Shown piece by piece: positions 24,621-58,187 of a DNA stretch of 64,000 nucleotides. Positions within the stretch are counted from its first letter, which is position 1. The number at the start of each line of letters is the position of its first letter. This DNA comes from a phage. Location of the stretch: sequence record PZ357121.2, one strand, 5' to 3'. The translations under genes were made by a program, and so were the position numbers. The notes below the pieces were generated by a model, which did no database searches, was not told the DNA's origin, and saw nothing but the letters and a program-made list of their open reading frames with translations.

Positions 24621-25090
24621 TTTAAACTCTTTCTAAGCTGCTTTTTGAATGAAGCTATTAATTGTGTTTTAGTATCAGATTCATTATATTCAAATCCTCT
24701 TTGAAGCATCTCGGCCATCATTTCCTCTTTACCTAGTCTCGAGAACTCTTTAGTTTTGTCTGGAACAAAATTAGGATGGATATTATTATCAGAATAATCT
24801 TGTTTCAAATAAGCAAGAAGAGCTTCAAGCCATTCGAGGTAGTTGACATCACGGCCTTTAAGACCGGAACGGTTGAACTTATGCTTCATTTGACCTTCTG
24901 CTGCGTTGCACAGATTACAGAGTAACCCACGAACTCTACCGGCTTTTGGCCCGTTTAATTCGTGGTCGTGGTCAAGATGGTTACCTTGAACATCAGGGTC
25001 TAATTCACGGTGGCAAATAGGACACTTACCGTTCTGTGCATCATAAAATTTTTGTTTTTCTTCTTTATATTTTGCGCCTGATAATAACAT
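24617..25090 (-). CDS. 49: endonuclease VII (Holliday junction resolvase) gp49
   Basis: 157 aa; zinc site CPIC..C..C and HLDHDHELNG motif; T4 gp49 length. Confidence 0.9.
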   Translation of the reverse strand: MLLSGAKYKEEKQKFYDAQNGKCPICHRELDPDVQGNHLDHDHELNGPKAGRVRGLLCNLCNAAEGQMKHKFNRSGLKGRDVNYLEWLEALLAYLKQDYSDNNIHPNFVPDKTKEFSRLGKEEMMAEMLQRGFEYNESDTKTQLIASFKKQLRKSLK

Positions 25091-25125
25091 GATAAACCCT
25101 TACCTTAAATAGATAAGGGTATTTA

Positions 25126-25551
25126 TTAACTTAAACGTCTTTCTAAATATTCAATGTATTCTGCGGCTGCTTGCATCAGGTTACCTTCATAGCCGTCGTT
25201 ATTTTCTTGTCCAGCTAATTTAGCTAATGCATAAGAAATTCGTTCACCTTCGAATTCACCAAGTTTACTACCTAGCACATCCGCAATATCAGCCGAATCA
25301 ATTTCTTCGAGTTCATCTATTGAATGTGATTCCCAGAAGCACCAAAGAGAAGTATCACGGTCATAGATGCAAAGTTTCTCACCAGTGTTCAACATCACTT
25401 CAATAATGCCATGGTCGCCATAACCATCTTCGGTCGTAGTACCAATTACCTTGATGATTGTTCCTTTCTTTAATTCAGGAAACTTGACTTGTAGTTCTTC
25501 ATCTTCTTTAACAATCTTGAACCATTTACCACGTGTGTCAGAAATATTCAT
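25126..25551 (-). CDS. hypothetical acidic protein
   Basis: 141 aa from ATG 25551 (MNISDTRGKWFKIV...), SD GAGGA; longer ORF-track form overlaps the upstream gene. Confidence 0.55.
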   Translation of the reverse strand: MNISDTRGKWFKIVKEDEELQVKFPELKKGTIIKVIGTTTEDGYGDHGIIEVMLNTGEKLCIYDRDTSLWCFWESHSIDELEEIDSADIADVLGSKLGEFEGERISYALAKLAGQENNDGYEGNLMQAAAEYIEYLERRLS

Positions 25552-35283: not shown

Positions 35284-35322
35284 GATAGGACTACTATAAC
35301 ATAGTCCTATCAAGATGTAAAC
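35284..35322 (-). promoter_or_regulatory. early promoter with 28-bp perfect palindrome (PeSL-type cassette)
   Basis: GATAGGACTA-CTATAACA-TAGTCCTATC followed by tgtaaac (GTTTACA on minus strand); identical palindrome at 53660 and near-identical at 45274 and 46568. Confidence 0.55.
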
Positions 35323-35819: not shown

Positions 35820-36122
35820 TTAGATAGATGTAGGCTCTAATTTTATTTTCATGAACTCAGCAAATTGTCTGGCAGTTTTTATGCCTTGTTCATGACATTC
35901 AAATGCATCATCACAGGGGCTATTTTTGTAATGCTTTGCCATATACTTATAGAATTTTTCAGAATTCTCGACATTTTGAATTTCAAACAAAGTATATACG
36001 TTTTTAATCCCTGATTCCATAAAGTTATCAAAATATGGGTCGATATATGCAGTACCAACGATAGGAGTTGTTGCTGCAAAAAACCCCAGCATCGCCATGA
36101 CAGCTATCGCTCTTAAGGCCAT
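35820..36122 (-). CDS. rI: lysis-inhibition regulator RI
   Basis: 100 aa; signal anchor MALRAIAVMAMLGFFAATTP then conserved DPYFDNFMESGIKNVY and CDDAFEC; matches T4 RI. Confidence 0.8.
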   Translation of the reverse strand: MALRAIAVMAMLGFFAATTPIVGTAYIDPYFDNFMESGIKNVYTLFEIQNVENSEKFYKYMAKHYKNSPCDDAFECHEQGIKTARQFAEFMKIKLEPTSI

Positions 36123-36134
36123 ATAGGCCTCCTG

Positions 36135-36347
36135 TTAATTTTGGCCAGTATTTATTTTTCGCCTTTGGACGGCCTTAACATCTGTGAGGTATTTTTCCAG
36201 CTTGCGCTTGCGTGTATAATCAGCTTTAGAACCAGTTTGACGGATATCCTCGTTTAAATGAGAAATAGAATGACCTAATTCTCTTCGGATTTCATCCAAT
36301 TGGGTTACAGTAAGATTACGAAGTTGTCTTTCGTTTAATTGCTGCAT
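36135..36347 (-). CDS. hypothetical basic protein
   Basis: 70 aa ORF between tk and rI. Confidence 0.55.
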
Positions 36348-42806: not shown

Positions 42807-43291
42807 ATATACGCTTTCCAAGTTCCTGTTTTAAATGTTGAGATTACGCGTTTCGCGCGATTAGGTGTCTGACGATACCATTTAGATTGGGCTAGATTTA
42901 CTGCCGCTTCATCCCAACGTTTCTGTTGAAGCATACGAAGAGAATTAGTAAAACCGGCGACTCCTGCTACACCCATTTGGAAGACCATATTGACCAATGC
43001 ACACCGACGAACTGCATCTAAAGAATCATATACCGGTTTAAGTTTAGCATTACCCAAGATTCCGCGGACGGCTTTATCAACGTCTTCATTAAATAGCTTT
43101 TCAGCCTCATCAAGGGTAATTGTACCGTTGCATTTACGTCCGATCATTCTGTCAAGTTCAGCTTTAGCTACGGCTAAAGACGGATTCTTTGTTACTAAAT
43201 GACCTATGCCAATCGTCCAAAAGCCTTCAGTGTCTTTGTATAAAGTCAGTCTAAGACCTTCGTCATTACGAAGCATTTCAAATATATTCAT
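42803..43291 (-). CDS. e: endolysin (T4 lysozyme e)
   Basis: 162 aa from ATG 43291: [32 protein letters not shown]...; SD GGAGG; near-identical to T4 lysozyme. Confidence 0.95.
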
Positions 43292-43325
43292 AATACCTCC
43301 CACGTTTATAGGAGGTATTTATTAC

Positions 43326-43784
43326 TTATAGGAGGGTAGTGAGCACCTTATATAATGATTTGCCCATTACATATTCCCATTGAGAAGGTTTAATTAAAGC
43401 GAATGCATCAAATTCAGGAATCTGTCGTCCGTCTGGGAACGTATGATAGGAATTACAAACACTGTTTCTGAATTGCTCGTGCTCTACAGGGATGGTATAT
43501 AAGAACAGATGAATATTCTTATTGTCTGAGTAACGATGTTCACCTAGGTCTTTCAGGAAGGCAGGGTCATATTGTGTAAACCCAGTTTCTTCTTCGCATT
43601 CACGAATAGCGGCTTCGATAGGAGATTCACCGGGCTCGACACGGCCTTTAGGAATATCCCACCGATGAGCTAAAGAACCTTTAGGACGAGAACCAGTTAC
43701 ACGGCCCATGAATAACTCTTTATCTTTTGTCATGAAGATAATACCAGCTGATAGCTCTTTCACTTTATTTTTCTTACTCATCAT
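43326..43784 (-). CDS. nudE: Nudix hydrolase NudE
   Basis: Nudix box GRVEPGESPIEAAIRECEEETG; next to e as in T4. Confidence 0.85.
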   Translation of the reverse strand: MMSKKNKVKELSAGIIFMTKDKELFMGRVTGSRPKGSLAHRWDIPKGRVEPGESPIEAAIRECEEETGFTQYDPAFLKDLGEHRYSDNKNIHLFLYTIPVEHEQFRNSVCNSYHTFPDGRQIPEFDAFALIKPSQWEYVMGKSLYKVLTTLL

Positions 43785-45273: not shown

Positions 45274-45311
45274 ATAGGACTACTATAACATAGTCCTATC
45301 ATGTTGTAAAC
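45274..45311 (-). promoter_or_regulatory. early promoter with palindrome (PeSL-type cassette)
   Basis: ATAGGACTA-CTATAACA-TAGTCCTAT then tgtaaac. Confidence 0.55.
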
Positions 45312-51205: not shown

Positions 51206-51284
51206 ATTTTCCTCACTTAAAGTTGGTGCCTCTAGAAAGATTTGAACTCTCACCATTAACCTTAGAACGATTATATGCTATCCA

Positions 51285-51956
51285 TTACACTATAGAGGCA
51301 ATTAAATTATTTACAATATCTTCTTTATAAACTTCAGCATAATGAAGTTCATATATTTCCCATCCTAATGATTTTATAATATCATGGCGTTCTTTATAAT
51401 AAGGGGCCAAAATCTTTTTCTTAGGATTGGAGTAATGTTGGTTTCCATTAACTTCAATAATAATCTTTTTATCTATTAAAGCAATATCCGTGCAATACGC
51501 TCGGTTTTTAACCGGTTGGTATTCTTCAATAAATGAAATTCCGTTTTCTATTAATTTAGATTTCAAAAATTCACAAGGCACAGATTTAAATTTTGTATTT
51601 TTCTTCCAAGGATGTTTATCAGGGTTTTCATTCAACCATTTTTTCCGAGCATTAGATATTTTTATTCTAGATTCCTCAGAGTGTTCTCTACCTAATGAAG
51701 CGGCTGACAATTTTTGTCTAGTCTCTTCCGAAATTACTACAGGGACACCAGTCTTTTTAGATACAACATACTGGTTTAAATTACCTGAAGCTATACGTGC
51801 TTTATTCATTGCTGCAATGGCTGATTTAGAACTTTCTTTATACAATTCCAATTTAGGGTTGGATTTACACCATCTAGTGTGGTTAGCCATCCATCCTTTA
51901 GGTTTATTAGAAATATCAAATTCCATATTACAATGTTTACAAATGCTCATTACCAA
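51285..51956 (-). CDS. homing-endonuclease-like protein with N-terminal zinc finger, NUMOD3 and C-terminal Vsr/DUF559-like nuclease domain
   Basis: 223 aa; CKHCNMEF..HTRWCK finger, LGREHSEESRIKIS (NUMOD3-like), C-terminal IIIEVNGNQHY...RHDIIKSLGWEIYEL; in tRNA region where T4 has segB. Confidence 0.7.
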   Translation of the reverse strand: MVMSICKHCNMEFDISNKPKGWMANHTRWCKSNPKLELYKESSKSAIAAMNKARIASGNLNQYVVSKKTGVPVVISEETRQKLSAASLGREHSEESRIKISNARKKWLNENPDKHPWKKNTKFKSVPCEFLKSKLIENGISFIEEYQPVKNRAYCTDIALIDKKIIIEVNGNQHYSNPKKKILAPYYKERHDIIKSLGWEIYELHYAEVYKEDIVNNLIASIV

Positions 51957-51960
51957 TTAT

Positions 51961-51979
51961 CTCCTATAAAATATAGGAG
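51961..51979 (-). promoter_or_regulatory. perfect hairpin sequestering the SD of gene 51285..51956
   Basis: CTCCTATA-AAA-TATAGGAG; on the minus strand the proximal arm TATAGGAG is the RBS 5 nt before ATG 51956. Confidence 0.45.
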
Positions 51980-52024
51980 TATTTATTATTTGGATAGAGC
52001 ACTTAATTTACTTCGTTTAAATTA

Positions 52025-52096
52025 CTGGCGCACTTGGACTCGAACCAAGATAAAGGAGTTAACAGCTCCCCGTAATAACCTTTATACGATGCACCA
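52025..52096 (-). tRNA. tRNA-Asn (anticodon GUU), CCA not encoded
   Basis: Manual cloverleaf: acceptor UGGUGCA/UGCGCCA, anticodon stem GGGAG/CUCCU with loop CUGUUAA, T-arm CUUGG-UUCGAGU-CCAAG, discriminator G; U1-A72 as in E. coli tRNA-Asn. Confidence 0.75.
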
Positions 52097-52102
52097 TTTG
52101 TT

Positions 52103-52177
52103 TGGTGACCCTGGCTGGTTTCGATCCAGCTACCTATCAGTTATGAGCTGACAGCTCTCCCATTGAGCTACAGGGCC
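52103..52177 (-). tRNA. tRNA with CAU anticodon (Met or AUA-decoding Ile2-like), CCA encoded
   Basis: Manual cloverleaf: acceptor GGCCCUG/CAGGGUC, D-stem GCUC/GAGC, anticodon loop CUCAUAA, T-stem GCUGG/CCAGC, 3' ACCA; resembles E. coli tRNA-Ile2. Confidence 0.75.
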
Positions 52178-53659: not shown

Positions 53660-53698
53660 GATAGGACTACTATAACATAGTCCTATCATCATGTAAAC
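53660..53698 (-). promoter_or_regulatory. early promoter with 28-bp perfect palindrome (PeSL-type cassette)
   Basis: GATAGGACTA-CTATAACA-TAGTCCTATC then tgtaaac; identical to the 35284 copy. Confidence 0.55.
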
Positions 53699-57676: not shown

Positions 57677-58126
57677 TCATCCCTTATATCCTAAACGACG
57701 TAAACCGTCTTCTGTGAGAATTCTGAATTTTATATTTCTCTTTTCTGCGACAGCAGAAGCAGCTTTCCATTTATCACAGTTCACAGACCACACGTAGATC
57801 TCGTTCATATAACGTTTCTTTGCTGCGGTCGTAAGATTTGCAGGCTTAATAGGTGGCTGAGTTTCTTTCTTTGGTTTTATTTCTACAAAGAACTCTTGAC
57901 CTGATGCATCTTTCATCCATATGTCCATATAGTATCGACGTTTCTTACCTTCGGCATTACAAAAATATGGAATTACTGCTGTTTCACTACCCCATGCAAT
58001 AATTTCTGGATTTTTATCTAACCATTCGAAAAAGAATTTTTCCCAGTTTGAACGATACGTTATTTTGGTATGGTCTCCACGGTATTTTTTTAAATTTTTT
58101 GGGACCCATTTACCAGAGTAGGCCAT
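57677..58126 (-). CDS. 4: head completion protein gp4
   Basis: 149 aa from ATG 58126 (MAYSGKWVPKNLKKYRGD...), SD GGAGGA; late promoter TATAAATA on minus strand at 58160..58153. Confidence 0.8.
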   Translation of the reverse strand: MAYSGKWVPKNLKKYRGDHTKITYRSNWEKFFFEWLDKNPEIIAWGSETAVIPYFCNAEGKKRRYYMDIWMKDASGQEFFVEIKPKKETQPPIKPANLTTAAKKRYMNEIYVWSVNCDKWKAASAVAEKRNIKFRILTEDGLRRLGYKG

Positions 58127-58137
58127 GTTGTCCTCCT

Positions 58138-58145
58138 TATAAATA
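58138..58145 (+). promoter_or_regulatory. late promoter (TATAAATA) for gene 53
   Basis: Exact T4 late consensus about 43 nt upstream of the gene 53 start. Confidence 0.5.
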
Positions 58146-58152
58146 GTATTAT

Positions 58153-58160
58153 TATTTATA
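58153..58160 (-). promoter_or_regulatory. late promoter (TATAAATA on minus strand) for gene 4
   Basis: Plus tatttata is the reverse complement of TATAAATA; about 27 nt upstream of ATG 58126; divergent from the gene 53 promoter. Confidence 0.5.
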
Positions 58161-58187
58161 CCAATTTCATATTGGAAGGAGACTATC

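Follow-up and report, generated by a model that had tools for sequence, protein, structure and literature searches.

What kind of gene has taken the place of segB in the tRNA cluster of a T4-type phage, and how is it expressed from there? The question is raised by positions 51,285 to 51,956 of a 64,000-nucleotide stretch of phage DNA (sequence record PZ357121.2), the whole of which is called the window here. The best-matching relatives of the window are T-even phages, of which the Mosigvirus (RB69/JS09) group is the nearest, and 846 phage records match the region with identities of 80-98%. The order of transcription, all on the minus strand, is tRNA-CAU, tRNA-Asn, a leader of 74 nucleotides (nt), the open reading frame (ORF) in question and tRNA-Arg(UCU); genes, protein domains and leader elements are given below by their window positions on this strand. 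The slot between tRNA-Ile(CAU) and tRNA-Arg is occupied by segB in T4, and the ORF fills the equivalent slot of the window. Our results indicate that the ORF is very probably a mobile Vsr-like homing-endonuclease gene of the tRNA cluster, under the control of a switch composed of a late promoter and a hairpin. A preliminary description of this DNA, made from the sequence alone, had placed a protein unlike SegB in the segB slot, which agrees with the shared tRNA neighbours and with a BLASTP comparison to T4 SegB (E 2.1).

The mechanical ORF call (51285..51956) starts with the TTG at 51956 and gives the 223 amino acids (aa) that the preliminary description reported. The true start is probably the ATG at 51950-51948, because all homologues begin there (MSICKHC or M..CKHC), and the ORF would thus cover 51285..51950 and encode 221 aa, with the stop codon TAA at 51285-51287. 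An antisense ORF on the plus strand (51490-51969) was without any family match and was treated as spurious.

The C-terminal catalytic domain (residues 109-221, 51288..51626) was assigned by Pfam and structure comparison to the Vsr-type variant of the PD-(D/E)xK fold. The protein matched Pfam DUF559 with 21.4 bits, above the cut-off of 20.6, and RAP with 23.9 bits against a cut-off of 24.2, and all nuclease-type Pfam matches came from PD-(D/E)xK-type families. The AlphaFold model of the protein had a predicted local distance difference test (pLDDT) score of 89.4, and Foldseek with this model agreed on the Vsr-type fold, with a proven DNA homing endonuclease as the top structural match. In an alignment of 47 homologues the residues E143, D155, E166, N168, G169 and H172 were invariant, the RHD motif with D190 was nearly so, and a block NPDKHPWK..KFKS.PCE was conserved. 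The signatures quoted in the preliminary description, IIIEVNGNQHY and RHDIIKSLGWEIY, are located at residues 163-173 and 188-200, respectively. The label "Vsr/DUF559-like" given there was right about the type of fold, but the precise family appears to be that of the EDxHD or Vsr-like homing endonucleases, of which I-Bth0305I is the prototype (PMC3239194). This family is defined by Asp, His and Asp residues equivalent to D51, H69 and D97 of Vsr, with Asn at the position of H64 (PMC3239194), and it has an invariant Glu at the position of Vsr F62 and tandem NUMOD3 motifs in some members (PMC2677866). The candidate active site of the window protein, E143, D155, E166-V-N168, H172 and D190, fits the EDxHD composite motif in order and spacing, including the Glu at the Phe62 position. 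The residues were mapped to D196, N208, H213 and D222 of I-Bth0305I likewise by order and spacing and not by a residue-level alignment; the spacings of the catalytic residues are 13, 4 and 18 in the window protein and 12, 5 and 9 in I-Bth0305I.

The N-terminal part carries the modules that presumably bind DNA, and the zinc finger named in the preliminary description was found again, together with repeats that resemble its NUMOD3-like motif. The C2HC zinc finger (51867..51941) keeps its ligands C4, C7, H24 and C28 (CxxC...HxxxC) throughout the alignment of 47 homologues and was modelled as strand-strand-helix with a pLDDT of about 95, and the relatives from Rhizobium phages match Pfam zf-C2H2_jaz above the cut-off. 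Two NUMOD3-like repeats follow at residues 74-105 (SEETRQKLSAASLGR and SEESRIKISNARKKW; 51636..51731), which match Pfam NUMOD3 in two stretches with 18.9 bits against a cut-off of 20.4, and the relatives reach 17-20 bits, likewise below the threshold. The database search returned 131 homologues, and a profile search of 1.84 billion representatives returned 2,065 clusters at E <= 1e-3; the family is therefore large. Many homologues share no more than the C-terminal 60% and have different DNA-binding domains at the N-terminus, for example of helix-turn-helix and MerR types, and such a modular domain design is typical of homing endonucleases. Domain shuffling among the endonuclease genes of tRNA clusters is also seen in Citrobacter phage CkP1 (L014, 1998-2633), whose protein has the same zinc-finger/NUMOD3 N-terminus but a T7 endonuclease I-like domain (Pfam Phage_endo_I, 27.1 bits, cut-off 29.1), and whose gene also lies in the tRNA cluster, behind a hairpin that holds the Shine-Dalgarno (SD) sequence and contains AATAAATA.

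Two other nuclease classes, HNH and GIY-YIG, were not matched. No HNH family appeared among the Pfam matches of the protein even at E <= 10, and no GIY-YIG match was found in Pfam. Two Pharokka-annotated records (L010, L011) label the gene "HNH endonuclease" despite the lack of an HNH domain, which is probably annotation carry-over, and in the GenBank and RefSeq records of HY126 (L001), AV111 (L004), F2 (NC_054913) and 17-11 the gene is unannotated, leaving a gap between tRNA-Arg and tRNA-Asn. NCBIfam gave no match and PADLOC one weak, meaningless match, so that a defence-system reading of the gene was unsupported by both.

The RAP match raises the alternative that the protein processes or binds RNA, as a factor for the tRNA precursor, and is not a DNA endonuclease. 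RAP domains are Vsr-fold RNA-binding modules of organelles, several relatives of the window protein score above the RAP cut-off, RAP-domain mitoribosomal proteins are among the structural matches, and the gene lies within a tRNA operon and overlaps a tRNA. We consider this highly improbable, because the best structural match is a DNA homing endonuclease, all the Vsr-type catalytic positions are conserved, and the NUMOD3-like repeats and the zinc finger are modules with which homing endonucleases typically bind DNA. A role in tRNA processing would also be unexpected of a gene that most sister phages with the same tRNAs do without.

As a probable homing-endonuclease gene product, the window protein shares with the EDxHD family the Glu/Asp/x/His/Asp pattern, presumed N-terminal DNA-binding modules that may include NUMOD-type motifs, the existence of free-standing phage members and hairpins in the 5' untranslated region, often with TATAAATA (PMC2677866); hairpins were described for 15 of 16 Vsr-like endonuclease genes, ten of them with TATAAATA (PMC2677866). 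I-Bth0305I itself differs, being encoded by an intron in recA and having NUMOD2/helix-turn-helix repeats, whereas the window protein is free-standing, lies in a tRNA cluster and has the C2HC and NUMOD3-like modules; the solved chain of I-Bth0305I has no detectable sequence similarity to it. Phage 0305phi8-36 was not among the 60 listed of 829 matching records in a tblastn search with a RecA fragment as the query. E. coli Vsr and the DUF559 proteins (3hrl) have the same fold and type of active site, but the zinc site and mismatch-recognition residues of Vsr are not evident in the window protein, which adds to this fold its DNA-binding modules and the genomic behaviour of a mobile element. Hef ("homing endonuclease-like function") of T-even phages was assigned to the same Vsr-like family by Taylor et al. 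(PMC3239194). By its description, Hef is free-standing and replaces the unrelated mobE at the same locus, a parallel to the replacement of segB by the window gene, although its site is between nrdA and nrdB and its target is nrdB; Hef was not among the tblastn matches at E <= 1e-3. The first 50 kb of phage Acj9 gave no match to the family profile.

The distribution of the gene is that of a mobile element. It is present in about 12 of the about 846 matching phage records and absent from most; the carriers among E. coli phages are HY126, F2 (two records, one genome), AV111, WFK, WFL6982, Mizar, ZQ3, PTE-Eco05, ELT1, PSD2001 and DCP548. In most Mosigvirus genomes, such as JS09, the site is empty and 3 nt separate tRNA-CAU from a tRNA-Arg of allele "a", with 60% identity to the allele "b" of the window, and allele b is confined to phage records that carry the ORF. 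The 954-bp unit of tRNA-CAU, tRNA-Asn, leader, ORF and tRNA-Arg b (51224..52177) is 99-100% identical between the window and ELT1, and its flanks are 75-92% identical; ELT1 is labelled Tequatrovirus and has a T4-like array of nine tRNAs. The sequences indicate that this cassette has moved recently between two genera. Its left homology arm is the tRNA with anticodon CAU (52103..52177; called Met, the positional equivalent of T4 tRNA-Ile), and tRNA-Asn(GUU) (52025..52096), which JS09-type relatives lack, is a member of the transferred cassette. In Klebsiella phages, KpV477 lacks the gene and has tRNA-Leu, 4 nt and tRNA-Arg, and in Shark_ER15 a tRNA-Arg almost identical to that of KpV477 has the cassette inserted exactly at its +1. 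In DCP548 (L009, 2652-2730) the tRNA-Arg behind the ORF is chimeric: nt 1 to about 50, the 5' two-thirds, are of allele b and the 3' third is identical to allele a of JS09, so that, judged from the sequence, a recombination junction has been caught within the tRNA gene. The acceptor strands of this chimera are unpaired and it was not called by Aragorn, and the recombination thus seems to have cost DCP548 a working tRNA-Arg. In the Mosigvirus VIPECOMC06 the same slot is occupied by a SegB 76% identical to that of T4, and tRNA-Arg is missing. The presence/absence polymorphism and the cassette transfer mark the ORF as a homing-endonuclease gene in genomic terms, in line with the name first given to it.

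The ratio of nonsynonymous to synonymous substitution rates (dN/dS) between lineages was 0.06-0.2, a sign of purifying selection, and the protein is therefore functional. This bears on the possibility that the gene is an inactive homing-endonuclease relic wedged between useful tRNA genes, with a hairpin that is a leftover or a terminator. Decay is common among free-standing endonuclease genes, the late promoter of the window is one base off the consensus, and in PTE-Eco05 (PQ306573.1) the gene was matched in two pieces annotated as two hypothetical proteins, which suggests a frameshift that is either real decay or a sequencing error. The hairpin, together with the T-rich tail after it, was also flagged as terminator-like on the plus strand. 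A relic is nevertheless very unlikely in view of the low dN/dS across lineages, the intact state of all the candidate catalytic residues and the near-identical copies in two genera, which imply recent transfer. The hairpin as a terminator was ruled out, because on the coding strand it has no U-run and there is no plus-strand gene for it to terminate.

The expression of the homing-endonuclease gene appears to be governed by its leader. The perfect hairpin noticed in the preliminary description (51961..51979) has an 8-bp stem and a 3-nt loop, CTCCTATA-AAA-TATAGGAG, and its 3' arm on the mRNA, UAUAGGAG (51968-51961), holds the SD sequence AGGAG (51965-51961). This stem stands as described, but it is merely the inner part of a predicted two-tier structure (51940..52005) that also buries the AUG. 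In the outer stem, 52005-51997 are paired with 51948-51940, that is, with the G of the AUG plus 8 nt, and there is a second pairing of CCAA (51993-51990) with UUGG (51956-51953). The window contains 28 perfect 8-bp hairpins, as compared to 11 +/- 5 in shuffled sequences, so none of them is rare per se. The fold of the 95-nt leader, however, had -22 kcal/mol against -10.6 +/- 2.65 for shuffles (z -4.31), and 0 of 200 shuffles were as good. What is non-random is the placement of the hairpin on the SD sequence, the fold of the whole leader and the recurrence of the structure with different sequences in relatives. The outer-stem pairs survive in relatives through wobble changes, and RNAalifold recovered the outer stem alone from five close leaders, because MAFFT misaligned the inner arms. 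The leaders of the Acinetobacter and Providencia relatives and of T4 segB form analogous structures from different sequences, which argues for structural selection more strongly than covariation among close relatives does.

A T4-type late promoter element, AATAAATA (-13 to -6; 51980..51987), is located between the 5' strands of the outer and inner stems, and the predicted late start near 51974 falls within the 5' arm of the inner hairpin. Seven related lineages have the perfect T4 late promoter TATAAATA at the equivalent position. Because of its start, the predicted late transcript lacks both 5' strands and should therefore be translatable. Across eight lineages (8/8), the leaders of read-through transcripts fold with -17.6 to -28.9 kcal/mol, and the predicted late transcripts with -1.2 to -4.2 kcal/mol. 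These folds support the earlier suggestion that the ribosome-binding site is occluded on read-through RNA, and the late promoter inside the hairpin, which the preliminary description had missed, would explain how the occlusion is relieved. The likely source of the read-through tRNA-precursor transcripts on which the hairpin forms is an early-type promoter on the minus strand upstream of the tRNA operon (53669..53697; TTTACA, 17 nt, TG-TATAGT), and the interval from there to the ORF showed no minus-strand terminator. A switch of this kind, made of a late promoter and a hairpin on the ribosome-binding site, has been documented for I-TevI, I-TevII, I-TevIII, gene e, soc and Aeh1 mobE and predicted for segB (PMC2988022); as in the layout predicted here, the sequestering hairpin is left without its 5' strand in the late RNAs of I-TevI, gene e, soc and Aeh1 mobE. 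A middle promoter of the MotA type was also considered for the 13-mer at 51990-52002, which contains the MotA-box-like TGCTCTA, but by eye there was no -10 element at the distance of 11-13 bp that such a promoter needs, and the idea was dropped.

Similar arrangements were seen elsewhere in the window. Lysozyme gene e and two other window genes have AATAAATA followed by an SD-sequestering hairpin. With AATAAATA and TATAAATA counted together, four minus-strand genes besides that of the endonuclease have such an element directly before an SD-pairing hairpin (43270-43335, 25080-25135, 36110-36165 and 58110-58165); gene e (MNIFEMLR..., start near 43291) is among them. A perfect palindrome, TAGGACTA-N8-TAGTCCTA, occurs in three copies (35286-35309, 45275-45298 and 53662-53685), every one of them inside an early-type promoter (GTTTACA ... 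TG-TATAGT) that precedes the start of a minus-strand gene by about 30-40 nt, and may represent a repeated early promoter with a possible operator.

At its 3' end the ORF runs into a tRNA gene. The sequence GCC TCT ATA GTG TAA encodes A-S-I-V-stop and is also nt 1-15 of tRNA-Arg(UCU) allele b (51224..51299), whose first 15 nt (51285-51299) are thus the last four codons and the stop of the ORF; this overlap was not noticed in the preliminary description. The same overlap of the ORF and tRNA-Arg is present in PSD2001, ELT1 and two lineages of Klebsiella phages, and an independent one was found in a metagenomic relative (L027), in which the ORF runs into tRNA-Arg(CCU) (2287-2361). L027 is a distant member of the family with a different C-terminal extension, it ends 15 nt inside tRNA-Arg (CTC GCT GTA AGA TAA), and a 28-bp perfect hairpin (-48 kcal/mol) abuts its ATG. 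T4 SegB resembles the window protein in its slot, in its length of 221 aa, in a hairpin that hides the SD sequence and the AUG, and in a leader with an ATAAATA element. The end of its ORF is the processing site of tRNA-Arg and it stops 5 nt before the tRNA, whereas the window ORF runs 15 nt into it. The two proteins are unrelated and differ in catalytic fold and domain order. For segB, a cut in tRNA processing at the gene's end has been suggested to restrain the expression of SegB (PMC2330249), and in the case of I-TevI translation into the intron core harms splicing unless a hairpin blocks it (PMC2988022). By analogy, the hairpin of the window gene may protect the folding of tRNA-Arg on precursor transcripts. 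The segB leader CATAAATACTCTTAGAAATAGGAGATATTTATG (T4, L015 1919-1960; VIPECOMC06, L003 2880-2925) resembles the leader TATAAATACTCTTATAATATAATAGGAGTATTTTGATG of the Vsr-like gene (L008/L009 1960-2003), and in PSD2001 and T4 both leaders come after the same tRNA and the same TATTTTNAGAA spacer. Two unrelated endonuclease ORFs may have been swapped behind a shared leader, or the leaders may be alike only because of the constraints on promoter and SD sequence.

Several points weigh against a homing endonuclease under a late-promoter switch. By sequence alone, neither a profile of 47 sequences nor the catalytic domain gave a significant match to a solved structure, and because these searches of the PDB gave nothing significant, the family link was drawn from structure prediction; the assignment is composed of the predicted structure, one Pfam match barely above its cut-off and the spacing of the motif, the matches to NUMOD3 and RAP both being under their cut-offs. 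In the leader, the covariation of the hairpin among close relatives is modest and mostly wobble, and the SD sequence itself constrains the inner stem. The promoter AATAAATA departs from the T4 consensus at -13, a position that is A or T in the late promoters of RB69-type phages (PMC1524935). The distance between the SD sequence and the start codon is also long in the window, with 10 nt from GGAG to ATG as compared to 6-8 nt in relatives. Finally, ordinary recombination between conserved tRNA genes could in principle move the cassette without any nuclease.

With these points in mind, we propose the following mechanism for the homing-endonuclease gene. The protein would bind DNA through the C2HC zinc finger and the two NUMOD3-like repeats at its N-terminus and would cut with its C-terminal Vsr-type PD-(D/E)xK domain (E143, D155, E166, N168, H172 and D190). 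During mixed infection with a related phage without the gene, the protein would cleave the tRNA region of that phage, likely in or beside the tRNA-Arg gene, and recombinational repair would then copy the gene and the adjoining tRNA genes, including its own tRNA-Arg allele, into the cut genome. On the sequence and the T4 precedent, transcripts from the upstream early promoters would read through and act as tRNA precursors, their leader would fold into the two-tier hairpin with the SD sequence and the AUG hidden, and the nuclease would not be made. Late RNAs, started by the promoter between the two 5' strands of the structure, would begin inside the hairpin, stay unfolded and be translated. Excision of tRNA-Arg by RNase P (cut at 51299) would strip off the stop codon and further limit expression, and the block of translation on precursors would keep ribosomes from unfolding tRNA-Arg.

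The insertion at +1, the replaced tRNA-Arg allele and the junction in DCP548 point to tRNA-Arg or its upstream junction as the candidate target of the window protein; in SegB, by comparison, the target is known and is the T-arm motif of tRNA genes. Four lineages share a conserved 13-mer in the leader, GTGCTCTATCCAA (52002-51990), which lies upstream of the late promoter. Its reverse complement matches the D-arm of the CkP1 tRNA-Arg, which is of the allele-a type, without a mismatch, and that of JS09 with two mismatches. The 13-mer may mimic the target in the way of the I-TevI operator, or its conservation may merely reflect the pairing of an outer-stem strand with the start-codon region. The T-arm of tRNA-Asn (52025-52096) carries GGTTCGAGTCC, in agreement with the core of the SegB recognition motif published as GGTTCRANTCC, and a co-infecting SegB phage would probably cut there, right beside the gene of the rival endonuclease.

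In all 19 of the genomic contexts of the family that were examined, a tRNA gene lies within about 500 nt, mostly within 200 nt; these contexts comprise eleven phage loci (Straboviridae genera and Rhizobium phages) and eight metagenomic contigs. A limited literature search found no description of a tRNA association of the Vsr-like family. SegB has the same family-wide association with tRNA genes, and its behaviour as a mobile gene was demonstrated experimentally (PMC2330249). We suggest tentatively, and with more doubt than belief, that the Vsr-like lineage has evolved independently into a second specialist for the tRNA arrays of phages, by convergence with the GIY-YIG SegB. Such a specialist may recognise features of tRNA genes, with the 13-mer of the leader as a possible I-TevI-like operator, and its insertion exactly at +1 may let the D-arm of the tRNA supply its stop codon. 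The resistant tRNA-Arg allele may be carried as cargo, the overlap may couple translation and tRNA maturation mechanistically, and the outcome may be turnover, even amplification, of tRNA genes used against tRNA-cleaving defences.

A related alternative, which overlaps with homing, is a domesticated nuclease that serves the phage, whose breaks in the tRNA array might promote duplication or turnover of tRNA genes against tRNA-cleaving host defences. SegB drives the amplification of tRNA-Tyr from the same slot to escape Septu (PMC13096335), and the constant proximity of tRNA genes together with the strong purifying selection on the protein would suit such a role. On the other hand, the patchy distribution and the recent transfer between genera are the signature of a selfish element, and no amplified tRNA segments were seen among the loci examined, so we regard domestication as unlikely.

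The endonuclease family, the regulatory mechanism and the locus as a hot spot of endonuclease genes are already known, and what is new are secondary points: that this branch of the family is specialised on tRNA arrays, that the stop codon lies within a tRNA, that a tRNA allele is linked to the gene and that the gene competes with SegB for the slot. In dozens of T4-type phages, some of them therapeutic candidates, the genome record leaves this gene unannotated, calls it "hypothetical" or mislabels it as "HNH endonuclease"; the analysis supplies it with a name and with a function that can be tested. The family may be a source of new long-target DNA-cutting enzymes, and the stop codon within a tRNA offers a simple system in which to study how translation and tRNA processing compete. 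Two endonuclease families with no relation to each other contend for one intergenic slot of the T-even tRNA cluster, and a branch of the Vsr-like family with about 2,000 sequence clusters was found beside tRNA genes in every context examined. Because SegB remodels tRNA arrays from the same niche, the nuclease family of the window is a natural candidate for defeating tRNA-targeting defences.

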